From an uncultured Candidatus Binatia bacterium (GTDB lineage: Bacteria; Desulfobacterota; Binatia; Bin18): a DNA stretch of 64,000 nucleotides. This document shows, in pieces, positions 30,218-46,258 of the stretch. The stretch is taken from NCBI GenBank assembly GCA_965242795.1, contig OZ251505.1, positions 3,265,587 to 3,329,586 on the forward strand, read 5' to 3'. Position 1 is the stretch's first letter. Each line of letters begins with the position of its first letter. The notes beneath the pieces were generated by a model that was not told where the DNA came from, searched no databases, and saw only the letters and a list, made by a program, of their open reading frames with translations. The translations under genes were made by a program, and so were the position numbers.

Positions 30218-30283
30218 GGGGACCCCCCACCGGCTCGACTACGGGCTGACGCCCTTGTCTCGCCGACTCCCCCTCACCCTTCG
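30218..30283. repeat. GC-rich 62-bp element (solo copy) shared with the hsdS-embedded DUF559 cassette terminus (40833-40900, ~95% identical)
   Basis: ggggaccccccaccggctcgactacgggctgacgcccttgtctcgccgactccccctcaccc versus gacgaccccccaccggctcgactgcgggctgcgcccttgtctcgccgactccccctcaagggggg. Confidence 0.65.
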
Positions 30284-30289
30284 ACCATC

Positions 30290-33200
30290 TCAAGACACCG
30301 CCGGCTCGGGGACTCGGGAGGCGACGGCCCAGCCCGCGGACAGGACTTCGGCCTGCTCCAGGACGGTGCGCGTGGCCTGCTCCCGCTTGTCGGGCGGATA
30401 ACCGTGTTTGCGCAGAATGCGCTTGACCAGGACGCGCAACTGCGCGCGCACGTTCTCGCGCAGCGTCCAGTCGATGGTGACGTTGCGGCGCACCGTCTCG
30501 ACCAGTTCGCGCGCAATGGCGCGTAGGGGTTCGTCGCCGAGCACGCGGACCGCGCTGTCGTTGGTCTCCAGCGCGTCGTAGAAGGCGATCTCGTCCTCCG
30601 ACAACCCGAGCGCGGCGCCGCGGGCGTTCGCCGTGCGCAGGTCGCGGGCGAGGTGGATCAACTCTTCGATCACCTGCGCGGCTTCGACGGCGCGGTTCCG
30701 ATAGCGGCGCAAGGTCTGCTCCAACATGGCGCTGAAGGTGCGCGCCTGGACCACGTTCCGGCGCCCGCGGGCGGTGATCTCGCCCTTCAGGAGTTTCTGC
30801 AGCAGATCGACGGCCAGGTTGCGCTGCGGCATGCCCCGAACCTCGGCCAGAAAGTCGTCGGAGAGGACCGATACGTCGGGCTTGTCCAGCCCGGCCGCGG
30901 CGAAGACGTCGGTCACGCCCGCGGACGCGACCGCGCGCGAGATGATCTGCCGGACGGCGCGGTCCATCTCGTCCGCGGGCCGTGCCGCGCCCGGCGCGCG
31001 TTTCGCCAGTACCGCCCGCACCGCCTGGAGGAAGCCCACGTCGTCGCGGATGCGCAGCGCGTCCGCGTGGGGTACCGCCAGCGCGAACGCGTGCGACAAG
31101 GCGTGCACCGCCTGCAGGCAGCGCTCCTTGCCGTCGGGCTGCGCCAGCACGTGTTCCTGCGCCGCGGGCAACAGGCCCAGCCGCTGCGCCGGCGTGCCGG
31201 CCGCCCACGCCGCCCGGTCGAAGCCGTGGAACAGGCCGCAGCAGACCTCGTATTTTTCCAACAGCACCGCGACCGCGTCGGCCTGGTCCAGCGCGGCGCG
31301 CCCGGCGCCACCGCCCTCCGTATAGGTCGCCAGCGCGCGGCGGAGTTCGTGGGCCACGCCCAGATAATCGACCACCAGCCCGCCCGGCTTGTCCCGGAAC
31401 ACGCGGTTGACCCGGGCGATGGCCTGCATCAGCGCGTGGCCGCGCAGCGGTTTGTCCAGATACAGGGTGTGCAGGCTGGGCGCGTCGAAGCCGGTCAGCC
31501 ACATGTCGCGCACCAGCACCATGCGCAGCGGGTCCGCGGGGTCGCGGAAGCGGGCGGCCAGCGCCTCGCGCCGGGGTTTGGTGCGGATGTGCGGCTGCCA
31601 GTCGGGCGGGTCGGCCGCGGCGCCGGTCATGACGATCTTGAGTGCCCCCTGTGCGTCGTCCGGGGCATGCCAGTCCGGGCGCAGGCGCACCAGTTCCCGG
31701 TACAGGGCGATGCAGATGCGCCGGCTCATGCACACGACCATCGCCTTGCCGTCGAGCGCTGTGAGTCGCTGCTCGAAGTGCGTGACCAGGTCGCGGGCCA
31801 CGAGCGCCAGCCGCTGTTCGGCGCCGACCACCGCTTCGAGCTGCGCCCAGCGCGACTTGAGCTTTTCCTTGCGCGCCGTCTCCTCGCCCTCGGTCGCTTC
31901 CTCGAAGTCGGAGTCGATGCTCGGGCGTTCGCGTTCGTCCAGGGCGAGCGCGGCCAGCCGGCTTTCGTAGTAGATCGGGACCGTGGCCCGGTCTTCGACC
32001 GCGCGCTGGACGTCGTAGATGCTGATGTAGTCGCCGAACACGGCGCGCGTGTTGGCGTCGCGCAATTCGACCGGCGTGCCGGTGAAGCCCACGAAGGCGG
32101 CGTGCGGCAGGGCGTCGCGGATGTGGCGTGCGTAGCCGTCGATGAAGTCGTACTGGCTGCGGTGCGCTTCGTCGGCGATCACCACGATGTTGCGGCGCTC
32201 GGACAACGCCGGGGTCGGTGCGGGGTGCGACTCCCGTTCCTCGGACGTATCGGACCGGAGGCGGGCGAGACCCCCGCGTGCCCGGGAGGGAGGCGCGGCC
32301 GGCGCTTCCGGAAAGAATTTCTGGATGGTGGTGAAGATGACGCCGCCGGACGCCACGGCGAGTTTGGCGTGCAGGTCGGCGCGGCTGTCCGCCTGGACCG
32401 GCGGCTGGCGCAACAGGTCCCGGCAGCGCGCGAAGGTGGCGAACAACTGGTCGTCCAGGTCGTTGCGGTCGGTCAGCACCACCACGGTCGGGTTCCGCAG
32501 GGCCGGCTCGCGGACGATGCGCCCGGCGTAGAACGCCATCGTCAGGCTCTTGCCCGACCCCTGCGTGTGCCAGACCACGCCGATGCGGCGGTCGCCGGGT
32601 TCGCCGCCCGGCTTGCGTCCCGCCTCGTAGCGGCCGCCGGCCCCTTCGCCGACGGTGTCGGCCTCCTGTTGCAATTCGGTCGCGCGCAGGGTTTCGGCGA
32701 CCGCGATCTCGACCGCGTGGAACTGGTGGTAGCCCGCCATTTTCTTGACGGGCGCGCCGTCGTCCTCGAAGACGATGAAATCGCGCACCAGCGCCAGAAA
32801 GCGGGCCGGCGCGCACACGCCCTTCAGCAGCACTTCGAGTTCGGGCCGTGCCGGATCGGCCAGCGCGGCGCCGGCAATCGTGCGCCACGGCTTGAACCAC
32901 TCGCGCCCCGCGGTCAGCGTGCCGATGCGCGCCTCCACTCCGTCGGACACGATCAGCGCGGCGTTCAGGGCGAACAGGGCGGGCAACTCGGCCTTGTAGG
33001 TCTGCAACTGGTGCCACGCGGTCCAGACGGTCGCGTCCTCGTCCGCGGGGTTCTTCAACTCGACGATGCCGAGCGGCAGGCCGTTCACGAACAACATCAC
33101 GTCGGGCCGCCGCTCGCGTTGCTGCTCCACCACGGTGAACTGATTGACCGCCAGCCAGTCGTTCTCGTCCGGCTCATCGAAGTCGAGCACGCGCGCCTGC

Positions 33201-33532
33201 GCCCCGCGGACCGCGCCGCCGTCGGGGCGATATTCCACGGTCACACCGTCCACGACCATGCGGTGAAAGGCGCGGTTGCGGGTTTCCAGCGTGACGCCGT
33301 CCGGCCGGGTCAGCCGGCGGACCGCGGCGTCAAGCGCGTCTGCCGGCAGGGCGGGGTTGAGGCGGGCCAGCGCGTCGCGCAGCCGCGGCTCCAGCACGAC
33401 CGCGGCGTAATCGGCGCGCTCCGCCCCGGGCGTTCCCGGTGCGATGTCCGGCCCGGAGGCGACCGACCAGCCCAGGCCGCGCAGCCAGTCGAGCGCCGCG
33501 TCCTCGACGGTGGATTCGGTGAAGTCGGTCAC
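30290..33532 (-). CDS. hsdR: Type I restriction enzyme R subunit (HsdR), ~1080 aa
   Basis: Probable GTG start at [22 protein letters not shown] (classic HsdR N-terminus). Helicase motif I …[11 protein letters not shown]…, DEAH box [10 protein letters not shown], motif VI …QAIARVNR…; C-terminal helical domain. Track ORF 30290..34330 over-extends at the 5' end. Confidence 0.9.
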
Positions 33533-34293
33533 GCGGCCAGATCCTCGCGCGCGGTCTCCCGCCTCGACCACGGCACCGGCCGCACGTCGTAGCGCCGTAT
33601 CGCGTCCGACACGTTCTCCGGGATGGCTCGGTCCGTATCGTTCAGAATGGCGTAGGCGCGGGACTCCGGGGCACGGGTCTCTCTGGTGTCGATCCAGGAG
33701 AAGGCGACCGCCTGTGCGGTGTCGCGGTTCGGTCGGTTGATCGTCCGCAGGACCCGCTCCGGCTGCGCCCGCGACTTCGGAATCACGAAATCGAACCGGT
33801 GATCGTATCCGCTCTTCCCGGTGAACTTCACGTTCGGCGTATAGCGAACCTCGGAAAGGTCGAGCCACGCCACGACGTCCTCGTAGAACAGGCTCTGGAC
33901 CGTGGGCGACGCCAAGGAGAAGAGATCGCCTACGGCGAGCATCGCCTGCACGAGGTTGTGCTTCCGCAGGGGAAAGTTGTCCGACGTCGCTCGAACTTCG
34001 AGTGCCTCCCGGCTGATCTGCACGCCGAACCCGTTGACCGTCGTTTTGAGGAGCGCCTGCCGTTTGGGGCTCCCGAGGGGGCAGCCGGACTGCTCCAGGT
34101 CGCCCAGCACGTACCCGTCGTCCGTCAATACGAATCCGCCATTGGCCCGTTTGACGTAGATTTGGAGGCAGTCGTTGTGCCGGTCCAGGTACGGCGTGGT
34201 GATTTCGATCCAGTCCTCGGTCCGGCGCAGACTCGTCCTGTCCCGTACCCAGGTCGCGTAGCGGTCCACGAGCGCCTGCACGTCTTCGATCAT
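33529..34293 (-). CDS. DUF1828/DUF1829-family protein (commonly associated with type I R-M loci)
   Basis: 254 aa from [16 protein letters not shown]…; ATGA overlap with the hsdR start region. Family assignment is from memory of sequence character, not a computed search. Confidence 0.5.
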
Positions 34294-34739
34294 GTGAACA
34301 ACCCTCGCCGGATGATGGGCGGGTCCACAACGTGACAGAACCGCAGGAAATCTTCGAGAGTTCGCCACGGATCGTTCACGTTCACGAAACGGTCGCCCGG
34401 AACCGGAGCCGCCCACTTGTCGCCGTATCCCTCGCGGTAGAGATGGATGTGCGGCGATCCGATCTCCTCTCCATCCGGGTTGCGGTGCGGTGCCCCGCCG
34501 AAATCGAGCCGGACGAGGACCACGACCTGTCGTCCGCGCTGTTGATAGGTGCCTTTCGCAAGATCGATTCGCGCCCGGGGGATGTCGAGCAGAAACGCCT
34601 CGCGCCGGTCGGTCGAAGCCAACGGAACCGTCACTCGTCCTCCGAAGTCCGGGTAGTCGTACTCGGTCTCGTCGACTCGGCGCTTCTCCATTCTCAGGAG
34701 GGCGTCGGCCTCAGCCTGCGTAAGGTCATGATTCGCCAT
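34290..34739 (-). CDS. Hypothetical protein (149 aa) in the hsd-embedded cargo
   Basis: …[45 protein letters not shown]…; possible His-containing active-site-like motif (PHIHLY). ATGA overlap with the DUF1829 gene. Confidence 0.4.
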
Positions 34740-34754
34740 CGAAGTTGCTCTTTA

Positions 34755-35894
34755 TTACGTGTGCAGGTCCGGGGGGTCCTCACTCGGAATGACGTCGGCA
34801 ATGCGGGCATGCAGCAAGTGCCAGCGCTGGCCGGTGCGCTCCAGGTCGCCTTTTATGACGACCGGCGCCTTGGCGGCGTGGGCGTGAATCGCGCGGTCGT
34901 AGTCGGATTGCGGCAGAACGGCGCTGACGGACTGGATTCGTCCGTCGATGTACGTGCGCAGCGTGATGGCCCCGCCGGTCTCCCGTCCGTCGCGTTGCAG
35001 GCGTTGCACGAGGCCGACCAGTTGCGCGTCCGGTTGCGGTTCGCGCTCGCGGAACGACCGGGCCGCCTCGCGCAGGATCGGCGCGTCGGCCTCGGCGAAA
35101 CGGACGACCGTGCGCACCGTGTCCAGCGGACGGGTGCGCGCCCAGGTCAGGCTGACGTCCAAGGTCGGGAACGGTCCGATCAGGTCGGCGAGCGATTCGC
35201 ACAAGTTGGCGCTCGTCCCGTGGACGACCGCGTTGGAGAAGGCCGCGGCGTCGCCGCCCACCGTTCTTTCCGTTGCCTCGCGGGTAGCGCTCAACGCTTC
35301 GGTCAGACGCCGCGTCATGCGCCGTTCGATCGGGTCGTCGTCGGGGGCCACGTCCAGGGCGAGCAGGGGTTGCGTGGGGGGCGGCACGACCGGAGGCAAC
35401 AAGGTCACGACGTAACTCCCCTGTTCGCTTTGCCCCAAGCGCACGCAGCCGACATAGGCGCTGGCCTCTCGGTTCGCGCCGGCGCGATAGAGCGGTCGCG
35501 GCTCGCGCAACGAGCAGGCCGCGGCCAGCAGCATGTCGTAGGCGCCGCGGAGGAGGCTGACCCCGTCGTTGACGGCTACGGAACCGGTGTCGTCGGGGGC
35601 CACCCGCACCCGGATGACGTCGCGGTCGGCGGTCACCAAGTCGCGGTAGAGCGCGAGTTCGTCCATGTCGGCAACCCGCGCGAAAATGTCGATGAGTTGC
35701 GCAACGACGGCGGCGTAGTCGCCGAGGCGCTGGGTGCGCGGCACGACGATCTCCGGCAGCCCGTCCGCGGCATACACGTCGGAATGATCGCCGTAGGGTT
35801 CGCGCCTGACCCATCCCGCAGCGCGGGCATAGGCCGAGAGGGCCGCAGGGGAAACCGCGGTCAAGGCTTCCGTGTCCCGGATGCTGGCTTTCAT
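34755..35894 (-). CDS. Hypothetical protein (379 aa), translationally coupled to the upstream DUF4365-like gene
   Basis: Start MKASIRDTEALTAVSPAAL… overlaps the stop of the preceding gene (ATGA at 35891-35894). Ordinary globular composition; no known motif recognised. Confidence 0.5.
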   Translation of the reverse strand: MKASIRDTEALTAVSPAALSAYARAAGWVRREPYGDHSDVYAADGLPEIVVPRTQRLGDYAAVVAQLIDIFARVADMDELALYRDLVTADRDVIRVRVAPDDTGSVAVNDGVSLLRGAYDMLLAAACSLREPRPLYRAGANREASAYVGCVRLGQSEQGSYVVTLLPPVVPPPTQPLLALDVAPDDDPIERRMTRRLTEALSATREATERTVGGDAAAFSNAVVHGTSANLCESLADLIGPFPTLDVSLTWARTRPLDTVRTVVRFAEADAPILREAARSFREREPQPDAQLVGLVQRLQRDGRETGGAITLRTYIDGRIQSVSAVLPQSDYDRAIHAHAAKAPVVIKGDLERTGQRWHLLHARIADVIPSEDPPDLHT

Positions 35895-36391
35895 CGGACG
35901 GTCCCTCCTCTCGATTGGTCCATCAATGCGCGCAGACCTTCGACAGTGAACAGATTCCCCGTCGGGATTCGGACGGTGACGGACGATCGATTGTCCGATT
36001 CCTCGGCCCCTTGCAAGTTCAGCCAATAGGCGCTCCGCCGCAGTATGAGCTCGTCCGCGGTGATCGTCATCCAGCGGTGCTCGTCCCTCGGCAGGTCGAG
36101 TACGACGAGCAGGCGCGGCGTCTGGGTCGGCTGACGTAACAGATCGTAGTTTCGACGTTTGAGGGGGAAGTGAAAACGTCCTTCATGCGGTTCGCTCAGA
36201 TTGATCGTTGCCTTCAATTGCAAATCGAGCGCCGGGCGCATCGCCCCGCCGGCTTGAATTCGCAGGTCCACGCCGTCCCGGTCCGGGTCGGGGATGGACG
36301 TGACGTAGCCGGTCCGTGCCGCTACGGCGTACGCATAGGCGCGGGAGAGGGCTTCTTGCCGGTCGGGGGCGGTCAGGAGGGTGTCGGTCAT
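35891..36391 (-). CDS. DUF4365-like PD-(D/E)xK-fold protein
   Basis: 166 aa. …IPDPDRDGVDLRIQAGG…LDLQLKAT… fits a D…(D/E)xK restriction-endonuclease-like core. The family call is tentative. Confidence 0.5.
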   Translation of the reverse strand: MTDTLLTAPDRQEALSRAYAYAVAARTGYVTSIPDPDRDGVDLRIQAGGAMRPALDLQLKATINLSEPHEGRFHFPLKRRNYDLLRQPTQTPRLLVVLDLPRDEHRWMTITADELILRRSAYWLNLQGAEESDNRSSVTVRIPTGNLFTVEGLRALMDQSRGGTVR

Positions 36392-36689
36392 AGGATGCTT
36401 TCACCTGTTTTTCAGGATTGCGGCTCTTGAGAGATTCGATCCGCGGGACGGCGGGTGAGGCAGCCGATTGGGACATTGGGGAGAGTCTCGGGGGCTTGTC
36501 GGCCCGCAGTTGACCGGAAAAGGGGGGCCAGGGCAAGAAGACAGGCTGGCGGTCGTGCATCCGTTTCGGTGGCGCTGCCCGGGAACGTGGGCGTTCCGCC
36601 CGCCTGTGGTGCGGACTGGAAGCCCGCGTTCCCAGGAAGAATAAGGCCAATCGATGCACGCCCGAAGGCTCAAGGCAGCCGGGTTCTTT

Positions 36690-36750
36690 CCTCCGATCAC
36701 CTCCCCCTAGTCCCTGAGATGGTCGAAGGATGAGGGGGAGTGATAGGAAG
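36690..36750. repeat. Near-perfect 12-bp inverted repeat (atcacctccccct…agggggagtgat) in a 410-bp intergenic gap; shares the 'gggggagtgat' motif with 40885 and 40968
   Basis: gatcacctccccctagtccctgagatggtcgaaggatgagggggagtgatagg. Confidence 0.4.
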
Positions 36751-36802
36751 GGCGCCCTACGGGCACGCTAAAGAATGGATATAACGTAGCCGGTCCACGC
36801 AG

Positions 36803-37474
36803 CTACGATGCTGGAACTGTCACATGGACCACAGCCCGTTCGGCAGGAAGTATCGACTCAGCAAAGGAGCCATCCTGCACGGGGAGCCTGTCAGCATATC
36901 GAGCCGACGCGGTGTGGTAGAAATTCCTGAGAATGAAGTCGATAAACCAGAAAGGCGTCATTGGGGCCGTTACCGGGATCCGGCAGTTTTGGTATTGGCC
37001 GAGCGTCAAATGAGACTTAGGATGTGTTAGCTCTCGGTGACGGCCGTCCCGAGCGTCATAGTCAAAACGCACCGGAAACGGAACGATGTTCCTGGAGAGC
37101 ACATCAGCGTAGATTTCGTCGTCTTGGTAGATATCCGGATTGTTCTGGAATTCTTCAAGGTGGGGTGCAGAGAAAAACGCAAGTCGGTGACGTTGCAGCG
37201 TTCCATTGACGAAGGCGTATGTCATCTGAATCAATGCGCCGTCAAGCATCTTTGCGTTGTAGGCACGCTCTTGGACAAGACTTTGGTAAATTTCCTCGTA
37301 TGGACGATCCTTTAACGCTTCTGACACATGTTCAGCTTTGTCAAAAGTGACTTGCACAAGATTATTAGCACCAGACTTTTGGAACGCAAAGCGTTGATCG
37401 TCGACGAGACTCCTCTCAACTAAATACTTGATGATTTCGTTGACTTGCTTTTCAACCTGATTGGAAGTTGGCAC
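36803..37474 (-). CDS. Hypothetical protein (223 aa; possibly DUF2290-like), upstream partner of the NERD-helicase
   Basis: Low-GC codon usage matching the helicase gene. Lies 5 nt upstream of the helicase stop and is presumably co-transcribed. No catalytic motif recognised. Confidence 0.5.
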   Translation of the reverse strand: MPTSNQVEKQVNEIIKYLVERSLVDDQRFAFQKSGANNLVQVTFDKAEHVSEALKDRPYEEIYQSLVQERAYNAKMLDGALIQMTYAFVNGTLQRHRLAFFSAPHLEEFQNNPDIYQDDEIYADVLSRNIVPFPVRFDYDARDGRHRELTHPKSHLTLGQYQNCRIPVTAPMTPFWFIDFILRNFYHTASARYADRLPVQDGSFAESILPAERAVVHVTVPAS

Positions 37475-37479
37475 GATCC

Positions 37480-39642
37480 TTATCCTTTCTCCATCAAGAG
37501 GGTTCGCAGTTTGGCCCGTTTGTTCCCGTCTAGGTCCTCAATATGAACATCACCCGATTCGATGTCTGCAATTAAATTGGCTAGGCTTCTTTCGTGGCTT
37601 TTCAATCGCTTGCGACCCTGCATTGTCATATCTCGATGAATGATCCACAACTTGTTACGTTGTTCTTTCGTAGGGTAGACGAATTGCAACTCGAAATCTT
37701 GTCGTCTTAGCTTCTGGTATTCTTCTTCAAGTTTCTTCATGTTATTACCGACACCGAGAACACGGACCCATGCTTTGCTTCGGGTTACGGCTGTAAAGAG
37801 ACGGTTCCGAATACTCGCTAAGTTCCACGCCGTTGAGTGACAGTCTTGTGCGTTGATGATATAAACCATTCCGGCTTCATTACCTTTAGCGCGATATATT
37901 CCGGTGAATGTCACAGAGGTCGAATCTGGCTGGAAAAAAACGTCTGCGGGGGTGTCGACTCCAGCGAGGTGGGAATCGATGCCCATTTCCAATAAGCGTC
38001 TACGTATTGGCCCAACATTTTGCCGGGTCGTAAGGGGATCAGGGTTGATGACAATTATGTCGTCATGTTTGAGTTCGTCGTTCTGAAGGTTGTTCCTGAT
38101 TTCGTTAGCCAACCATTCAGCCTGGGACTCATCATCGTCGAATTTTTTGAATAGGACAAGGTCGTCAACAGGGGAATGGTTTTCGAGGAATGCTGGGCTT
38201 GAATCTGTCGTCCTGTGAAGAATAATGTGCGACCCTTCCCTTAACTCTCCCGCTTTGTTGTAGTAGCCGACATCTTCCCATAGCTGCGGATGTTCAAACA
38301 TCTGGATGAGACCTGTCTCACTTAAATCTGATGGTTCCCGATATATGCCAAATCCGAGCGCATGTGCTGTTACAAGAACAGGACGTGAGTTACGGTAACA
38401 CTTTTTCAGAATGATATCGCATTGTGGCTCATCGCTTCCCGCATCATTGAATCTCACTTTGGGGGACCCGTCAGCCTTTTTCCCAAAGATTTCTTCCGGT
38501 GAGGATAAGGACTCTCCAGAGAGGCTCTGCAACTCATCGTAAGCATAAACCAGTCTTTTGGGGTATTTTAGCAATTCGTAACAGAGTCGCAGAAACATGG
38601 GGGAAAAGTCCTGTGCCTCGTCTAGGAGAACTGCGTCGTAGAGATGCTTGCTTTGATGGACTTGATTAAGCGCGTGTTCGCATGCCCCGGAAAATTCCTT
38701 TTCCCTACCGAACTTATCTCTCGCCGCTCCGAAATCGAAGTAGTCAATGTCATGTTGGCGACAAAATTCGTAATAAATTCCGTCACGTTCGCTGCTACCA
38801 GGAGCTCCCCACGCGGTGACGATTCGTAGAATATTCCAGTCAGGCTCCTCGCCCGTTTGTTCTATGGAAAATTTATTTATCAGACGACGAAAATGTCCCT
38901 TCAGCGAACGAGTATTGAATGTGACAGCTATACGCCATTCAGGATGTTGTGCGTGGAGATAGGCTGCTTTCAGTGCTAAGATGATAGTCTTACCCGAACC
39001 TGCTAAGCCGCGGATGCGCTGTACTCCTTCGACTGTTTCGATAACCGCCCGGATTTGTCTATTATCGAGCGTAGAGATCGAATTTTCAAGTTCTTTGAGT
39101 CTGTAGCCTCGAGAGTTGTTTTTTGTAGTGGTCCGGCCGAGCTTATTTTTTCTAATCGTAGAAACACTTTCGATTACGGACAGCGATTTCTCGTATATTT
39201 CTTTGCTTGAATTCTCCCATCTCAAATTCTCTAGCTCGTGGATAAGGGAACGAGAATTGGCGAGGGGGTAGCTGCATTCCGAGGATAGATTCAATTTACT
39301 AATTCCCGGCGCAAACGAAATCGTATGGACCGGGATAAGGAGCTTTCTTTGTAGCATTAATTCTCGATGAGTTTTAAGTCGCCCTTCAAGCTTGTTGGCA
39401 GAGTCATCTTGTCGAAATTGGTAATCTCCGGCCTCAGACCCCTCTATCAGGTCAAATAGAACGATTCCTTTGTCTGCAGACACAAAGATCGCGTCAATTA
39501 GATGGCGTCCTTCGGACGTGTTGATGATTGGATATCCGATGAACAACTGGCCCGCTAAAGCAGTCTGAGAGGAAAACATTTCAACCAGAAACTGACTAGA
39601 AGCAGGCTTCTGATTGGTTCCTTGAACTATGTTTATGCTCAT
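37480..39642 (-). CDS. NERD-domain / superfamily-1 (UvrD/Dna2-like) helicase, 720 aa
   Basis: N-terminal NERD-like segment (…GYPIINTSEGRHLIDAIFVSADKGIVLFDLIEG…). Walker A IRGLAGSGKT, motif II VLLDEAQDF, motif VI-like TAVTRSKAW. ~45% GC. Confidence 0.8.
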   Translation of the reverse strand: MSINIVQGTNQKPASSQFLVEMFSSQTALAGQLFIGYPIINTSEGRHLIDAIFVSADKGIVLFDLIEGSEAGDYQFRQDDSANKLEGRLKTHRELMLQRKLLIPVHTISFAPGISKLNLSSECSYPLANSRSLIHELENLRWENSSKEIYEKSLSVIESVSTIRKNKLGRTTTKNNSRGYRLKELENSISTLDNRQIRAVIETVEGVQRIRGLAGSGKTIILALKAAYLHAQHPEWRIAVTFNTRSLKGHFRRLINKFSIEQTGEEPDWNILRIVTAWGAPGSSERDGIYYEFCRQHDIDYFDFGAARDKFGREKEFSGACEHALNQVHQSKHLYDAVLLDEAQDFSPMFLRLCYELLKYPKRLVYAYDELQSLSGESLSSPEEIFGKKADGSPKVRFNDAGSDEPQCDIILKKCYRNSRPVLVTAHALGFGIYREPSDLSETGLIQMFEHPQLWEDVGYYNKAGELREGSHIILHRTTDSSPAFLENHSPVDDLVLFKKFDDDESQAEWLANEIRNNLQNDELKHDDIIVINPDPLTTRQNVGPIRRRLLEMGIDSHLAGVDTPADVFFQPDSTSVTFTGIYRAKGNEAGMVYIINAQDCHSTAWNLASIRNRLFTAVTRSKAWVRVLGVGNNMKKLEEEYQKLRRQDFELQFVYPTKEQRNKLWIIHRDMTMQGRKRLKSHERSLANLIADIESGDVHIEDLDGNKRAKLRTLLMEKG

Positions 39643-39662
39643 AGGCGGCTCCTTTTATTGTC

Positions 39663-41627
39663 CTAGCTTTTATCGCCTGATGGTTCATGGACATCCCTCT
39701 CGAGATTTGAAACTGGATATTCTAACTCATCTGAAATAAGTCTCAGTAGCAACGTATCTCGTACTGAAGTTAATGTGCAAATTTCCTTCTCGTGTAACAA
39801 AATCGTTTTATGGATTGGATGGCTCATCTTCTCAAACCATCTTATTAGATTTGATCCCGGATTCAAAATGGACAAATTACTAAAGGTGGACTTGTTCATA
39901 TTCCCAAATACAGACCCTCCACTTCCTCCCGCTAGGACCTCGGCCGATAAGCCTCTACATGCCCAATACAAATATTTGATCATCCGCCTGTCATTAGGAA
40001 CTATACTGTTGATTTGCTGGTTAGTGTGAGTCTCTCTATGGTTGATGACTACAAGCCCGGGTGTAGCTATGCAACTCATCGACATACTACCTGGGGGCAA
40101 GGCTTTCGTAGGCTGAGATGAAGCGCCTGCGTATGAAAGCATAGTGTGGGTGTGCATTACATATATCCTTTTATGCATATCAGGGATTTTCAAGAATGGG
40201 ACGTCCGCTCCGTAGAAGGCCGGATTGTGTGTATCTGGGGTTTTTCCAGTAACTATTGTTCCAAACTCTTTCAATTTCTTCAAGGCCCATCTTCTTGGGA
40301 TCGGACCGACAGCAGATTTCTCGAACCCATCCGGGAACAGGGCCACAACCTCCGGGTCCATCCCGTCGAGATAGGCACGGGCGCGTTCGACCGTCCACGC
40401 CGTGGTTCCCTTCCTATCATTCCCCCCTTGAGGGGGAGTCGCAGTCGCCAAGCCTTCAGGCGCCGGCGACTGCGGTGGGGGGTCCCCCGCTACCGCCTCG
40501 TACACCCGCTCCAACACCCCGAAACAGTTCTCGAAGACCTCCGTATTCCAGAAGCGGAGCACGCGGTAGCCCCGCGCCCGGAGAAAGGCGTCGCGCTTCT
40601 CGTCCCGGCTCGTCTGTTCCGCATGCTGGCCGCCGTCGAGTTCGATGAGCACCTTGCGGGACAGACAGGCGAAATCGACGATGTACGGACCGATGGGTTG
40701 TTGGCGGCGGAACCGGTAGCTGCCGAGTTGTTTGTTGCGGAGGTAGTGCCAGAGGAGTCCTTCGGCGTCGGTGCGGTTGCGGCGGAGGGCGCGGGCGGCG
40801 GTCAAGGCGCGACGGGAGTAGCCGCGGCGGACGACCCCCCACCGGCTCGACTGCGGGCTGCGCCCTTGTCTCGCCGACTCCCCCTCAAGGGGGGAGTGAT
40901 GAGACGGGGAAACCGGCGGGGAGGAGAGTCTCCCATGGGCCGTGGCCGTTTCGTCTCCTGCTTGCAACGGGGAGTGATGGGATGAGGCACGGCGCTTGAG
41001 GGCGGCTTTGGCGTGGACGGGGTCGAAATCGACGAACCAGGACTTGAACAGCGCCCGCGCCATATCCTCCAGCGTGGCGTTCAGGCGGCGGTTCAGGGCG
41101 ATCTTGTCGTCCAGCGTGCCGAGGACGTGGGCGATGCGGTGTTGCTCCGGGAGCGGCGGCAGCCGGAGTTCCAGCCGCGCGATGTCGTCGGGCCGGATGG
41201 ACGGATAGGCGGAGACGCTGTGCTCGGCGATGGTGTGCAGCCGCTCGACGACATGGCCTTGCGCCAGAAACCAGTAGAGGAAGTCCGTATGTGCCACGCC
41301 GGCCTTGCCCCGGATGACGGCGAAGGCGGTCGAGACCAGCAGATTGTCCGGCGGGTCTTTCAGCAGGCCGAAGTGGCGCTGGTCCGGGCGCACGGTCGAA
41401 TACACGATGTCGCCCGGCTGCACCTTGCGGCGCGCCCGACTCGGAATCTTGTCGGTCCCCGGCACCAGGCGGCGGATGGTACCAACGCGATTGTCGGTGA
41501 CGTTGCCGGTATCGAGATAGTGGATGAACGGCCACGCCTCTTTCGGCGAATACGTGGCGTCGTTGATGACCGCGCAGTCGCCCAGGGTCACGGTGCGCCA
41601 CTGAACCGTATTCGATACGGAAGCCAT
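39663..41627 (-). CDS. hsdS: Type I restriction-modification specificity subunit HsdS with an in-frame ~200-aa DUF559 (Vsr-like endonuclease) insertion in the central conserved region; low-GC TRD2
   Basis: TRD1 plus central conserved helix (…LPPLPEQHRIAHVLGTLDDKIALNRRLNATLEDMARALFKSWFVDFDPV…). Then the insert with a DUF559 core (…LLWHYLRNKQLGSYRFRRQQPIGPYIVDFACLSRKVLIELDGGQHAEQTSRDEKRDAFLRARGYRVLRFWNTEVFEN…). Then resumption (…ARAYLDG…) and TRD2. 654 aa versus ~400-450 typical. Confidence 0.8.
   Translation of the reverse strand: MASVSNTVQWRTVTLGDCAVINDATYSPKEAWPFIHYLDTGNVTDNRVGTIRRLVPGTDKIPSRARRKVQPGDIVYSTVRPDQRHFGLLKDPPDNLLVSTAFAVIRGKAGVAHTDFLYWFLAQGHVVERLHTIAEHSVSAYPSIRPDDIARLELRLPPLPEQHRIAHVLGTLDDKIALNRRLNATLEDMARALFKSWFVDFDPVHAKAALKRRASSHHSPLQAGDETATAHGRLSSPPVSPSHHSPLEGESARQGRSPQSSRWGVVRRGYSRRALTAARALRRNRTDAEGLLWHYLRNKQLGSYRFRRQQPIGPYIVDFACLSRKVLIELDGGQHAEQTSRDEKRDAFLRARGYRVLRFWNTEVFENCFGVLERVYEAVAGDPPPQSPAPEGLATATPPQGGNDRKGTTAWTVERARAYLDGMDPEVVALFPDGFEKSAVGPIPRRWALKKLKEFGTIVTGKTPDTHNPAFYGADVPFLKIPDMHKRIYVMHTHTMLSYAGASSQPTKALPPGSMSMSCIATPGLVVINHRETHTNQQINSIVPNDRRMIKYLYWACRGLSAEVLAGGSGGSVFGNMNKSTFSNLSILNPGSNLIRWFEKMSHPIHKTILLHEKEICTLTSVRDTLLLRLISDELEYPVSNLERDVHEPSGDKS
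40414..40900 (-). mobile_element. Inverted-repeat-bounded DUF559 cassette inserted in-frame into hsdS (miniature selfish element candidate)
   Basis: tccccccttgagggggagt at 40414-40432 and its inverted counterpart gactccccctcaaggggggagtgat at 40868-40892 flank the DUF559-coding segment. The 5' flank carries the 62-bp GC-rich element also found at 30218-30283. The flanks translate as HSPL(Q/E)GE mini-repeats inside HsdS. Confidence 0.4.
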
Positions 41628-41969: not shown

Positions 41970-42275
41970 CGTATCGGTCATCTGTGGCCGGCAAAAGAAT
42001 TTGTCGGCCATTTTTGGCGAAAAGTGGCCGGCAACGCGCGTTGTCGGTCATGGGTGGCCGATAGCGCCGTTCGTCTCGAAAGGGCGCCATCAATCCAGAC
42101 CGCCGGCGGCCGTGGCGTCGCAATCATACCCGTCTTCGCCATCCACGGCTCCGGCTCGATAGAGTTCCTTCCGTATCGGTCATCCATGACCATCAAAGGA
42201 ATTTGCCGGCCATTTTTTGCGGAAAGTGGCCGGCAACGCGCGTTGTCGGTCATGGGTGGCCGATAGCGCCGTTCC
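41970..42275. repeat. Two ~105-bp direct repeats (41970-42072 and 42171-42275), each containing reiterated tcggtcatNNgtggccggcaa sub-motifs; in the fic-hsdS intergenic region
   Basis: cgtatcggtcatctgtggccggcaaaagaatttgtcggccatttttggcgaaaagtggccggcaacgcgcgttgtcggtcatgggtggccgatagcgccgttc repeated with ~90% identity. Confidence 0.7.
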
Positions 42276-43374
42276 CGCCCTCCACGGTCTCGATGAGGTC
42301 GGAGAACGCGAGCACGGTCGTCCGGCGGCCTCTGCCGCGGCCGATGACGCTCAGAATGCCGCCCTCGCACAACGCGTCCACGAGGCGCCGCGCCGTTCTT
42401 GCCGGAATGCCGGCATCGGCAACGAAATGGGAACTGCGGAAGATCGGTCGCTCGAAAATCCAGTCCAATGCGCGGATGGCGTATCGGGAGCGCGTCAGAT
42501 TCGGCACGCGCCGCTTCATGTCGTCGTAGAGGGCGAGAATCCCCTTGGTCTTGACCAAGTTGTCTTCCGCCTGTGCCTGCACCGCTTCGAGGAAGAACCG
42601 ACACCAGCCGGTCCAGTCATCATCGCGTGAGACGCCCAGCAGTTGCTCATAGTAGATGTCCCGGTGCGCCTCGAAATAGGCGCTAATGTAGAACATGGGC
42701 CGTCCGATAATGCCGTGCTGCCACAAGAACAGGGGAATCAGCATCCGCCCGAGGCGGCCGTTACCGTCCAGAAATGGGTGCAGCGCCTCGAACTCGGCGT
42801 GGAGAATGGCGAGTTGCGTCAGCCGGTCGGGGGCGTCCCGGTGAACGTATCGCTCCCATCCGCTCATGGCACGGGTGAGCGTCTCGGCACCGGGAGGGAC
42901 GAATTTGGCTTGGTCGATGTCGCAGCCGGGCGGGCCGATCCAGTTGGGGACGCGCCGGTATCTCCCCGGGGACTTTCCTTTCCCGCGGACGCCGGACAGT
43001 AACACTTTGTGCACGCTGCGGAGGACGCGCTGGGAGAGCGGCAGCTTCTTCAGCATCTGCTCCGCTTGCCGCATGGCGGCCCGGTAATTGAGCACTTCAT
43101 GGATGTCGTCGCGGCGTTCGGGCGATTCCGCTTCCTGTCCGGCTTCGAACTCCATCACCTCGCCCATGGTGGCCTGCGTGCCCTCGATCCGTGAAGAAAG
43201 GACGGCCTCCCTGGTCGTCAGGGGCGCGAGCAGCACGTCGGGGTTCGGGACCGCGGAGAGCATCCCGTCGTACCGCGCGACCGCGCCGGCCGCCGGACCG
43301 ATCAGCGGGATCAGCGTCTGCCAGTCGAGACGCTCGGGCGGGAACTGCCCGGCGTGATAGTGGATGGGCGCCAT
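42250..43374 (-). CDS. fic: Fic/DOC-family protein (class II, N-terminal inhibitory helix) embedded between hsdM and hsdS
   Basis: FIC motif HPFLDGNGRLGR; alpha-inh-like motif SRIEGT near the N-terminus; 374 aa. The start ATG overlaps the hsdM stop (TGATG). Track ORF 42250..44319 is an over-extension. Confidence 0.85.
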   Translation of the reverse strand: MAPIHYHAGQFPPERLDWQTLIPLIGPAAGAVARYDGMLSAVPNPDVLLAPLTTREAVLSSRIEGTQATMGEVMEFEAGQEAESPERRDDIHEVLNYRAAMRQAEQMLKKLPLSQRVLRSVHKVLLSGVRGKGKSPGRYRRVPNWIGPPGCDIDQAKFVPPGAETLTRAMSGWERYVHRDAPDRLTQLAILHAEFEALHPFLDGNGRLGRMLIPLFLWQHGIIGRPMFYISAYFEAHRDIYYEQLLGVSRDDDWTGWCRFFLEAVQAQAEDNLVKTKGILALYDDMKRRVPNLTRSRYAIRALDWIFERPIFRSSHFVADAGIPARTARRLVDALCEGGILSVIGRGRGRRTTVLAFSDLIETVEGGNGAIGHP

Positions 43375-44963
43375 CAGTCCCCTCCGAATCCGAGGCGGCG
43401 CAGATTCTCCGCAATGGCGGCGTCCAGCTTCTTCGCCTCGGCCTGCTGGGCGCGGAGTTGCGCGGTGAGGCGGCGCATCTTGGCCTCGAACGACTCGCCG
43501 TCGTCCCGCGGGGCCGCCGCGCCGACGTAGCGGCCGGGGGTGAGCACGTGACCGTGGGCGCGGATGTCGTCCAGCGTAGTGCTTTTGCAGAAGCCGGGCG
43601 CGTCGACGTCCGTCCCCGTGCGCCACGCATGATAGGTATCGGCGATGCGGCCCACGTCGTCGGCTGCGAGTTCGCGGTGGGTGCGGTCCACCATGCGGCC
43701 CAGCTTGCGGGCGTCGATGAACAGCACGTGGCCGCGCCGCGGGCTGCGCGGGCGGTCGCGGGCGAGGAACCACAGGCAGGCCGGAATCTGGGTCGAGTAG
43801 AAGAGTTGGCCCGGCAGGGCGACGAGGCAGTCCACCACGTCGGCCTCGACCAGGCCGCGGCGGATGCTGCCCTCGCCGGCCTGGGTGGACGACATGGAGC
43901 CGTTGGCCAGCACGAACCCGGCCACGCCGGCGGGCGCCAGATGGTGCACGATGTGCTGTACCCAGGCGAAGTTGGCGTTGCCCTTGGGCGGCACGCCGTA
44001 GCGCCAGCGCGTGTCGTCGGCGAGCCGCTCGCCGCCCCAGTCGGAGACGTTGAAGGGCGGGTTGGCGAGGATGAAGTCGGCCTTGAGGTCGGGGTGGCGG
44101 TCGTCGTGGAAGCTGTCGCCCTGCGCGATCTGGCCGGCGATGCCGCGGATCGCGAGGTTCATCTGTGCGAGCCGCCACGTCGTATAGTTCGACTCCTGGC
44201 CGTAGATGGAGATGTCCGGCTTGGCGCCGCCGGGCATGCGCTCGCCATTGCCGTTGCCGGTCGCGTGCGCGTCGATGAAGGCGACCGACTGGACGAACAT
44301 GCCGGCCGAGCCGCAGCACGGGTCGTACACCCGGCCGCGGTAGGGCCGCAGCATCTCCACCAGGAGGGTGACCACGCAGCGTGGGGTGTAGAACTGGCCG
44401 CCCTTCTTGCCTTCGGCGCTGGCGAACTGCGACAGGAAGTATTCGTACACGCGGCCGAGCACGTCCTTGGACCGGGCGTCGGCGTCGCCCACGCGGACGT
44501 TGCCGACGAGGTCGATCAGCCGGCCGAGCTGCTGTTTGTCGAGGCCGGGGCGCGCGTAGTCCTTGGGCAGCACGTCCGCGAGCGCGGGGTTGTCGCGTTC
44601 GATGGCGGCCATAGCGTCATCCACGCGCCGGCCGACGTCGGGCTGCCGCGCCTGAGCCGCGAGATGCGGCCAGCGCGCCTCGGGCGGCACCCAGAAGACG
44701 TTCTGGGCGCGGTATTCGTCCGGGTCTTCCGGGTCGGCGCCCTCGGCCCGTTCGCCTTCGAGGCGGGCGTGCGTCTCGGCGAACGCGTCGGAGATGTACT
44801 TCAGGAAGATCAGGCCGAGGACGACGTGCTTGTATTCCGCGGCGTCCATACTGCCGCGCAACGCGTCGGCCATGCGCCACAGCTCGGCTTCGTAGCCGGT
44901 CGTGGCGCCGGACGGTGCGGCGTCGGTCTGCGGCGGGGTCTTCTTCGTGCGGGTACGGGCCAT
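43374..44963 (-). CDS. hsdM: Type I restriction-modification N6-adenine DNA methyltransferase subunit (HsdM)
   Basis: N-terminal HsdM_N helical domain (…[18 protein letters not shown]…). SAM motif I …[12 protein letters not shown]…, catalytic NPPF (…ILANPPFNV…). 529 aa. Confidence 0.9.
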
Positions 44964-45046: not shown

Positions 45047-46258
45047 TCATGTTTTCAGCCATTCCCCGACGGGTTTCAACAGGAAGGTTCCGACATCGAT
45101 CCCGTCGCTACCGACGAGCAGTTTGCGCGTCGGCCGGAACGCCGCGGAAAAGGCCGCCATGCCGGCCCGCGTGTCCGCCGGGCGCCCGCTCTTGACCTCG
45201 ATGGCGATCAGTCGGTTGCCTGCGCGCACCACGAAATCGACCTCGCGGCTGCGTTCGCGCCAGTAATGGACCGTACAATCGCCGGCGACCGCGGCGTTGG
45301 CCAGATGGGCGCCGACCGCGGACTCGACCAGCCGCCCCCAGAACACGCGATCGGCGCGAGCCTCGGCCAGGGTCACCCCCGCCTGCGCGGTGATCAGCGC
45401 GGTGTTGAAGACCTGGAGCTTGGGGCTCGAAGCCCGCCGCCGGACCGCGGCGCCGGCGTATTTTTGCAAGCCGGTCAGCAGCCCGGCCCCGGCCAACAGG
45501 TCGAGATAATGCGCCAAGGTCGTGGTGTTGCCCGCCTCCTGAAGCTGCCCCTGCATCTTGGTGTAGGAGAGAATCTGTCCGGAGTAGGCGCACCCCAACT
45601 CCAGCAGCCGGCGCAGCAAGGCGGGCTTGTCCACGCGCGAGAGCAGTAGCACGTCGCGGGAAACGACGGGTTCGATGAGCGCGTCCCGGACGTAGCGCGC
45701 CCAGCGGGGCGGCTGCCGGATCAGTGGCGCCGCCCCGGGATAGGCCCCGTAGAAGAGATATTGATCCAGTGACCAGTCGAAGGCTTCCCGCATTTCGGCG
45801 AAACTCCAATGGGGCAGCCGCAACACCTCGAACCGCCCGGCCAAGCTCTCGCCCAAGCCGCGCTCGACGAGCAGCGGCGCCGAGCCGAGCAGGACGACTT
45901 TGAGCGGTACGCCGGTGCGCGTGTCCGCGTCCCACAGCCGTTTGACGGTCTCGGACCAGCCCGTCACCTTCTGCACTTCGTCCAGCACCAGCAGCGCGCC
46001 GTTCGCGTCCGCCTCGTGGGTGAGGTTGCGCCCGGCTTCCCACTGTTGTTCGACCCACTCGGTGCCGCGCAAGGTCGGCTCGTCCGCGCTGGCCGTATGC
46101 GTCGGCAGGTCGGACCGCCGTACGGCATCTGCCACCAGGGTGGTCTTGCCGACCTGTCGCGCGCCGGCCACGACGTGAATGAAGCGTCGCGGCTCGGCCA
46201 GCCGATGGACGAGTTCCCGAACTTGAGGACGAGAATAGGACGACGATTTACTCAACAT
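45047..46258 (-). CDS. AAA+ ATPase, DUF4143 family (paralogue of the gene at 1-1073)
   Basis: Walker A GARQVGKTT, Walker B …LLVLDEVQ…, DUF4143-like C-terminus; 403 aa. Confidence 0.8.
   Translation of the reverse strand: MLSKSSSYSRPQVRELVHRLAEPRRFIHVVAGARQVGKTTLVADAVRRSDLPTHTASADEPTLRGTEWVEQQWEAGRNLTHEADANGALLVLDEVQKVTGWSETVKRLWDADTRTGVPLKVVLLGSAPLLVERGLGESLAGRFEVLRLPHWSFAEMREAFDWSLDQYLFYGAYPGAAPLIRQPPRWARYVRDALIEPVVSRDVLLLSRVDKPALLRRLLELGCAYSGQILSYTKMQGQLQEAGNTTTLAHYLDLLAGAGLLTGLQKYAGAAVRRRASSPKLQVFNTALITAQAGVTLAEARADRVFWGRLVESAVGAHLANAAVAGDCTVHYWRERSREVDFVVRAGNRLIAIEVKSGRPADTRAGMAAFSAAFRPTRKLLVGSDGIDVGTFLLKPVGEWLKT

Follow-up and report, generated by a model that had tools for sequence, protein, structure and literature searches.

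A predicted DUF4365 nuclease and its OB-fold partner, a coupled gene pair of the defence candidate PDC-M02 nested in a type I restriction operon of an uncultured Binatia bacterium

The nuclease domain DREN of SPARDA, an Argonaute-associated system, is DUF4365, and serves there as a collateral nuclease, Q62 and K64 being the active-site residues in TmuRE (PMC10810196). The DREN domain of NbaSPARDA carries D41 on strand β2 and Q60 and K62 on strand β3, and in isolation it is a 20-kDa monomer without detectable activity, being active only as a D2 tetramer (PMC12205087). The DUF4365-based systems reported as active are SPARDA and the single-gene Divona, an anti-phage protein of Vibrio chromosomal integrons with DUF4365 at its N-terminus. 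A further precedent is PrrC (EcoprrI), an anticodon nuclease encoded inside an hsd operon. The present analysis concerns a gene pair, M02A and M02B, in a 64,000-nucleotide stretch of DNA (hereafter the window) from an uncultured Candidatus Binatia bacterium (contig OZ251505.1 of assembly GCA_965242795.1, positions 3,265,587 to 3,329,586). On the minus strand of the window, M02A (35891-36391) encodes a predicted stand-alone DUF4365 (DREN-type) nuclease of the PD-(D/E)xK class, 166 residues long, and M02B (34755-35894) encodes a 379-residue partner from a family without a Pfam model. The pair is nested between hsdS and hsdR of a type I restriction-modification (RM) operon, and is best explained, with a probability of roughly 0.55, as an autonomous, horizontally mobile two-gene defence module, probably acting through abortive infection.

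The pair is already catalogued as the PADLOC phage-defence candidate PDC-M02, of which the window locus is a further member. PDC-M02 was listed by Payne, Hughes, Fineran and Jackson (2024, bioRxiv 10.1101/2024.01.29.577857, Table S8, CAS_00021, FAM_01850>>FAM_00842) among 'guilt-by-embedding' candidates, which were chosen for their embedding in BREX, DISARM or type I RM systems, and with 894 instances in RefSeq v209 it was the second most abundant multi-gene candidate. It was listed as a candidate without domain analysis, mechanism or experimental test; PDC-M05, S05 and S70 of the same catalogue gave protection. No difference separates the window locus from the catalogued pair, both hidden Markov models being matched end to end and A preceding B on one strand within a type I RM operon. 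This filing agrees with the preliminary description of the locus, made from the sequence alone, which had proposed an uncharacterised defence or toxin-immunity module. As far as titles and abstracts tell, none of the listed papers that mention DUF4365 appears to describe this two-gene system.

The assignment of M02A to DUF4365 and the PD-(D/E)xK nucleases, which the preliminary description had made from the sequence alone, was borne out by a full-length match to PF14280 (83.9 bits against a cut-off of 24.3, E = 1.4e-23), in which residues 13-158 align to positions 1-137 of the 139 in the profile. The PADLOC profile PDC-M02A was matched over residues 6-163 (E = 3e-57). The core of the protein was, by contrast, wrongly described as D…D-x-K: the actual motif is D42…Q58-x-K60, contained in the sequence LDLQLK, and represents the Q-variant typical of DUF4365. 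Neither the 48 homologues taken from related loci nor the 51 taken from databases vary at E13, D37, D42, Q58 or K60, and of these E13, D42, Q58 and K60 are the putative catalytic residues. Searches of PDB sequences with M02A, and with a profile of its alignment, returned nothing meaningful. Judged by its sequence, M02A is a stand-alone DREN-type PD-(D/E)xK nuclease with its conserved catalytic site intact and with predicted activity. DUF4365 fills nearly all of the 166 residues and is accompanied by no further domain, making M02A essentially a bare DREN domain, which, like isolated DREN, therefore probably needs a partner for its activation. The small protein had also been described as a 'sensor or effector', and only the second of these roles is retained, because DUF4365 is the effector domain of SPARDA.

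The reading frames of 166 and 379 codons, their minus-strand orientation and their overlap were confirmed at the coordinates given above. The plus strand reads TCAT at 35891-35894, where on the minus strand the ATG of M02B (35894-35892) overlaps the TGA of M02A (35893-35891) to form an ATGA stop/start overlap that couples the translation of the two genes. A Shine-Dalgarno-like sequence, GAGGAGGG, is present within the 3' end of M02A (35903-35910, minus strand), 8-15 nt before the ATG of M02B, and may serve as the ribosome-binding site of that gene, while AGGTGA is found at 36401-36406 (minus strand) ahead of the ATG of M02A.

This arrangement was compared across 80 related loci (L001-L080) from one-genome-per-species contigs, picked by their match to M02B at 56-76% identity. 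Of the 78 loci that extend far enough upstream, 70 have a DUF4365 gene, or what can still be recognised of one, ending precisely where M02B starts. As in the window, the order in every one of the 54 intact pairs is A then B, adjacent and on the same strand, and all 54 overlap, 45 of them by 4 nt (ATGA type) and nine by 1 nt (TGATG type), so the ATGA overlap in the window is not a product of chance. The pairwise identities of M02A correlate with those of M02B (Mantel r 0.74, with none of 999 permutations as high), and the two proteins co-evolve. In the clusters P0368 and P0366, the C-terminal half of DUF4365 reads through in frame directly into M02B. Plasmid-borne pairs are only 22-48% identical to the window pair and still translationally coupled, including a spirochaete plasmid whose partner protein is only 22% identical; the pair is thus kept coupled from metagenome-assembled genomes (MAGs) of Nitrospirales and Chloroflexota to a spirochaete plasmid.

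The 80 loci span Nitrospirales, Acidobacteriota, Latescibacterota, Chloroflexota, Binatia, Gemmatimonadota, Spirochaetia, and Alpha- and Gammaproteobacteria, and the presence of M02B relatives at 56-76% identity across so many phyla implies frequent horizontal transfer. Close relatives of M02B occur in at least nine phyla, nearly all of them in uncultured MAGs. The DUF4365 protein and the associated hsdR show levels of identity similar to those of M02B across the related loci, and hsd operon and cargo appear to be transferred as one unit from lineage to distant lineage.

A related hsdR (53-79% identity) is present downstream on the same strand in about 35 of the 80 loci, usually with hsdM and hsdS upstream, a figure that is a lower bound for hsd embedding as the search covered relatives of the window's own Hsd proteins. 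No neighbour of the pair is constant; those that recur are hsdR, hsdM, hsdS, the PDC-M24 pair described below, ATPases and a 150-residue protein judged by eye to resemble the partner of a nucleotidyltransferase. On the Gluconobacter plasmid pGS1191_1, the pair adjoins the gene of a RelE/ParE toxin, which is itself paired with a gene for an HTH-domain protein, and a Fic gene is nearby. On the Entomospira plasmid p28 its neighbours are an Abi gene, three genes of the DUF262 (GmrSD-like) type and a HicA toxin gene that has a gene for an HTH-domain protein beside it. No hsd genes were found within 5-6 kb of either plasmid copy. These observations suggest that the pair is autonomous and not tied to hsd.

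The 379-residue partner had been described as free of recognisable motifs. This holds for Pfam, NCBIfam and PDB sequences, none of which was matched by M02B alone, nor in the case of PDB by a diverse M02B alignment, but not for the PADLOC profile PDC-M02B, which matches residues 1-372 (E = 9.4e-123), or for the modelled structure, in which an oligonucleotide/oligosaccharide-binding (OB) fold, a kind of domain that commonly binds nucleic acid, is predicted. An exhaustive profile search placed 4325 clusters at 50% identity in the family at E <= 0.001, of which 1253 reach E <= 1e-30; almost all are 370-390 residues long. The AlphaFold2 model, built from 66 sequences, is confident, with a predicted local distance difference test (pLDDT) of 85.4 and a predicted template modelling score of 0.71. 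It comprises a conserved α/β N-terminal region of high confidence (residues 1-285; 35040-35894, minus strand), and a C-terminal OB fold of the order β1-β2-β3-α-β4-β5 (residues 286-368; 34791-35039, minus strand), with strands modelled at 287-300, 308-316, 319-327, 345-354 and 357-368 and a helix at 329-340, between β3 and β4. No PDB fold matched the N-terminal 285 or so residues among the best Foldseek matches listed.

The OB assignment of the model is consistent with the Foldseek comparison against PDB, in which the top 50 matches listed were almost all OB-fold proteins, aligned over about 80-110 columns. They include the Mycoplasma single-stranded DNA-binding protein (SSB) 2hql (E = 1.7e-3, probability 1.0), PriB and RPA (probability about 1.0, as for SSB), the wedge domain of RecG, the HIN domains of AIM2/IFI proteins and the anticodon-binding domains of tRNA synthetases. 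Among the viral structures of BFVD, phage SSBs match the OB region, and one protein, from Leptospira phage LE1 (Q6NE06, E = 2.5e-21), is a full-length relative of M02B. The PHROGs search yielded only two families, both of unknown function. Window M02B has no match to SSB or OB families in Pfam, and weak OB matches occur in two or three family members, PF01336 being touched by only two of 74 relatives (E = 0.013).

Conservation within M02B was assessed in a diverse alignment of proteins 30-58% identical to that of the window. The conserved positions of the N-terminal region are W28, P52, D59, D92, R95, E157, S160, R191, G226, N230, C232 and W251, and those of the OB fold are R301, G308, Y332 and G349. 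The C-terminus is modular, the OB fold being exchangeable for TPR repeats: the relative P0274 keeps residues 1-268 and has TPR repeats in place of the OB fold, and P0262 has about 370 residues of TPR repeats added after it. It is typical of immune-system sensors to combine a constant core with C-terminal receptor domains that can be exchanged.

The nuclease gene of the pair is prone to decay. In 24 of 78 loci (31%), M02A carried a frameshift or an interruption, was deleted, or survived as remnants, being disrupted in L005, L009, L011, L014, L016, L023, L025, L033, L044, L046, L052, L053, L055, L058, L063 and L070, and absent or a remnant in L002, L003, L007, L012, L047, L050, L061 and L066, while M02B was intact in all 80. 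In L061 and L066 only N-terminal fragments of M02A are left, fused to or beside M02B, and in L002 a gene pair that looks PIN-domain-like, a call made by eye from the translations, occupies the place expected for M02A. Loss of a 166-codon gene in 31% of loci beside an intact 379-codon gene suggests that the nuclease is costly and fits a toxic effector.

The window pair shares with SPARDA (NbaSPARDA, TmuRE-Ago) a nuclease of the same Pfam family, and by sequence D42, Q58 and K60 of M02A correspond to D41, Q60 and K62 of NbaSPARDA and to Q62 and K64 of TmuRE. The architectures differ, as the SPARDA nuclease is fused to APAZ and stands beside a short Argonaute (MID-PIWI), whereas M02A has no APAZ and the pair no Argonaute, its neighbours being PDC-M24, hsdR and DUF2290. 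In the absence of both APAZ and Argonaute, RNA-guided target recognition is not expected of this pair, and where SPARDA is Argonaute-based, the OB fold of M02B is the proposed sensor. An APAZ- or Argonaute-like identity of M02B was considered and rejected, as there is no similarity to APAZ or PIWI in Pfam, in PDB sequences or among the top Foldseek matches. Divona resembles M02A in carrying a DUF4365-type nuclease outside an Argonaute context, but is a single protein in which a crr6 domain is fused to the nuclease, whereas M02A is separate and partnered with a protein predicted to contain an OB fold. PrrC resembles the M02 pair as a second line of defence nested in a first; it belongs to an unrelated protein family and is almost exclusively embedded in hsd operons, whereas PDC-M02 is often found elsewhere.

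The placement of the pair in hsd cargo, as previously described, was confirmed by Pfam and PADLOC scans: hsdM (43374-44963), hsdS (39663-41627), the M02 pair and hsdR (30290-33526) are all on the minus strand, the genes of the region being co-oriented, and hsdR carries the Pfam domains HSDR_N, SWI2_SNF2 and T1RH-like_C of a type I restriction subunit. PADLOC recognises at least three cassettes in the interval from hsdS to hsdR, of which the M02 pair is one. On the upstream side of the pair, a UvrD-like helicase (37480-39642, minus strand) and a DUF2290 protein (36803-37474, minus strand) make up the PADLOC system Helicase-DUF2290. On its downstream side lies PDC-M24, a second ATGA-coupled candidate pair, which accompanies M02 in about 10-13 of the 80 loci. 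Its first gene encodes a DUF6978 protein (PDC-M24A; 34290-34739, minus strand) and begins 15 nt past the M02B stop, and its second, ATGA-coupled to the first at 34290-34293, encodes a DUF1828/DUF1829 protein (PDC-M24B; 33529-34293, minus strand) and stops 2 nt before the start of hsdR. The spacing from M02A through hsdR is as close as within one transcription unit, and the M02 pair is probably co-transcribed with the tightly packed genes downstream, PDC-M24 and then hsdR.

Further genes are present on the hsdM side of the operon. An AAA_14/DUF4143 ATPase gene (45047-46258, minus strand) lies just upstream of hsdM; relatives of it at 68-82% identity stand beside hsdR or near the M02 pair in eight related loci (for example L001, L002, L021 and L031), and three more loci have matches of only 24-31%. 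A Fic/DOC-domain gene lies within 42250-43370 (minus strand), between hsdM and hsdS. After it come two direct repeats of 103 nt, at 41970-42072 and 42172-42274, which are 91% identical and carry palindromic TGGCCGGCAA...TTGTCGGTCA motifs. The hsdS gene is a single frame of 654 codons with an in-frame DUF559 (Vsr-like endonuclease) domain between its two target-recognition domains. This domain is complete (E = 1.4e-39, residues 275-379), and its insertion, at about 40390-40925, is bracketed by a 48-nt inverted repeat (40394-40441 and 40875-40922). The same HsdS-DUF559 architecture was found in two Nitrospirales MAG loci (L001, L002) at 71-72% identity.

The hsd operon is a mosaic of pieces acquired separately. 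GC content is about 0.69-0.72 in the flanks and hsdR and 0.64-0.70 over M24 and M02, and falls to 0.43-0.47 in the helicase gene, in part of DUF2290 and in the 3' half of hsdS, DUF2290 as a whole being intermediate at about 0.45-0.51. The low-GC block, at about 36800-40300, includes the second target-recognition domain of hsdS; it looks like a recent foreign acquisition, in which a new specificity domain came in together with the Helicase-DUF2290 system.

The intergenic gap upstream of M02A (36392-36802, 411 bp, ahead of the gene on the minus strand) does contain the inverted repeat noted in the preliminary description, with 29-nt arms at 36575-36639 that are 76% complementary, as well as a hairpin with 13-nt arms at 36701-36740 (within about 36690-36750). 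Its predicted RNA fold exceeds those of all 100 shuffled sequences in stability (z = -4.0). A promoter scan upstream of M02A found no sigma-70-like site, such a scan being a weak guide in a genome of about 70% GC, and Rfam had no match within 33000-38000. The gap sequence has no counterpart upstream of the M02 pair in any of the 80 related loci, and it therefore belongs to the locus and not to the module. A role for the inverted repeat as a regulatory part of the module was considered and rejected, the repeat being conserved in none of those 80.

One hairpin of the gap belongs to a repeat with the core ACTCCCCCTCA, which occurs four times in the 64-kb window against 0.76 copies expected by chance, a number reached by none of 100 shuffles. 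The copies lie just 3' of hsdR (30266-30276), in the gap upstream of M02A (36731-36741) and on either side of the DUF559 insertion in hsdS (40429-40439 and 40877-40887). All four are at cassette borders of the hsd operon, and the repeat therefore reflects the assembly of the locus and not PDC-M02. An inverted pair of 27 nt (30266-30292 and 36715-36741; 96% complementary) encloses hsdR, PDC-M24 and PDC-M02, and 30221-30276 and 40833-40887 make up a direct repeat of about 56 nt (about 98% identical). These repeats could be recombination scars, or sites for the shuffling of cassettes.

For the pair as an autonomous defence module, we infer that the two proteins interact physically, that there is a ligand, that oligomerisation activates the nuclease and that the pair acts against phage. 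M02B would, through its N-terminal region, bind M02A and hold it dispersed or occluded, and the OB fold, or in some relatives the TPR repeats, would recognise an infection-specific ligand, most plausibly single-stranded DNA (ssDNA), replication intermediates, other aberrant nucleic acid, or a phage protein bound to them. Binding of the ligand would lead M02B to assemble, bringing M02A protomers together into a DREN-type tetramer, which by analogy with the DREN of SPARDA would cleave DNA and RNA non-specifically, aborting the infection. A more specific version of this proposal is put forward only tentatively, namely that PDC-M02 is an Argonaute-independent counterpart of SPARDA, in which M02B, from a sensor family not described before, with a constant scaffold and an exchangeable receptor (OB for nucleic acid, TPR for protein), would assemble once it meets an infection cue and drive DREN tetramerisation and the non-specific cleavage of DNA and RNA.

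The tight translational coupling would also suit a toxin-antitoxin or addiction module, with M02A as toxin and M02B as antitoxin, that mainly stabilises the hsd island, plasmids and mobile DNA instead of sensing phage. Decay of the nuclease gene with retention of its partner (24 of 78 loci) is the pattern seen in orphan antitoxins, the plasmid pairs adjoin RelE/ParE and HicAB modules, and the gene pair at the M02A position in L002 is, by eye, PIN-domain-like. This explanation is nevertheless judged unlikely: M02B, at over double the size of M02A, has an OB fold and, in relatives, sensor-like TPR domains; Pfam scans detected no antitoxin DNA-binding domain (HTH, RHH or AbrB-type) in its 379 residues; and the homologous isolated DREN is inactive alone, so that M02A may require activation and not neutralisation. 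Nor do the two readings exclude each other, as many abortive-infection systems formally behave as toxin-antitoxin pairs.

Less probable again is an accessory role in the type I enzyme, in which the pair would be a PrrC-like guard, latent in the Hsd complex and freed by a phage DNA-mimic anti-restriction protein, or would supply an extra nuclease acting with HsdR. The co-oriented position of the pair, with hsdS on one side, hsdR on the other and little space to the genes downstream, is compatible with such a role, as is the related hsdR downstream in about 35 of the 80 loci, and PrrC, found almost only embedded in type I RM, is a precedent. In more than half of the related loci, however, no relative of the hsd genes lies within 10 kb, neither plasmid copy (Gluconobacter, Entomospira) has hsd genes within 5-6 kb, and the operon is shared with unrelated cassettes (Helicase-DUF2290, PDC-M24 and Fic), so that it looks like a general landing pad. 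Frequent horizontal transfer, implied by the 56-76% identity across many phyla, together with a modelled OB fold resembling SSB, PriB and RPA, could also point to a selfish mobile nuclease or a DNA-repair or recombination pair, such as a homing-type endonuclease with an SSB-like helper and no role in immunity. This is very improbable, as there is no intron, intein or conserved target-site context, flanking sequences vary between loci, the nuclease gene is often lost, and defence genes are the recurrent neighbours.

Several points weigh against the interpretation of the pair as a defence module with a nuclease effector and a nucleic-acid sensor. The AlphaFold2 model of M02A, built from 51 homologues of 68-90% identity, is poor (pLDDT 44.4); its low-confidence order of elements (helix 8-27, strands 30-32, 41-47 and 55-62, helix 79-86, strand 93-98) is compatible with αβββαβ, and the nuclease fold is predicted from the Pfam match and the motif. 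In M02B, the modelled OB fold is no proof of nucleic-acid binding, as OB domains of the pertussis-toxin B subunit are among the Foldseek matches, and the N-terminal region, with its conserved D59, D92 and E157, could itself be an enzyme. The asymmetry between an intact M02B (80 of 80) and a decayed M02A (24 of 78) is inflated by the selection of loci through their match to M02B, and the apparent fusions in P0368 and P0366 could be single-base assembly errors at the ATGA overlap. A tblastn search against a phage genome collection found no homologue. No experimental test of PDC-M02 was found in full-text searches of the literature that could be searched, and two candidates of the same catalogue, PDC-M63 and PDC-S04, gave no protection in one native host.

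The locus illustrates how a type I RM operon gathers defence cassettes, with at least three between hsdS and hsdR and a Fic gene between hsdM and hsdS. The partner family is abundant, with more than 4,000 clusters at 50% identity in many phyla, yet the catalogued candidate is uncharacterised. The link to the DREN domain of SPARDA, together with an exchangeable OB or TPR receptor, gives a concrete and testable model of sensor-driven assembly of a collateral nuclease. If PDC-M02 is indeed an Argonaute-independent counterpart of SPARDA, activation of DREN by induced oligomerisation would be a general and portable effector principle used with unrelated sensors. If the model of sensor-driven assembly is right, PDC-M02 would provide a collateral nuclease triggered by protein or ssDNA without a guide RNA, possibly of use in diagnostics.

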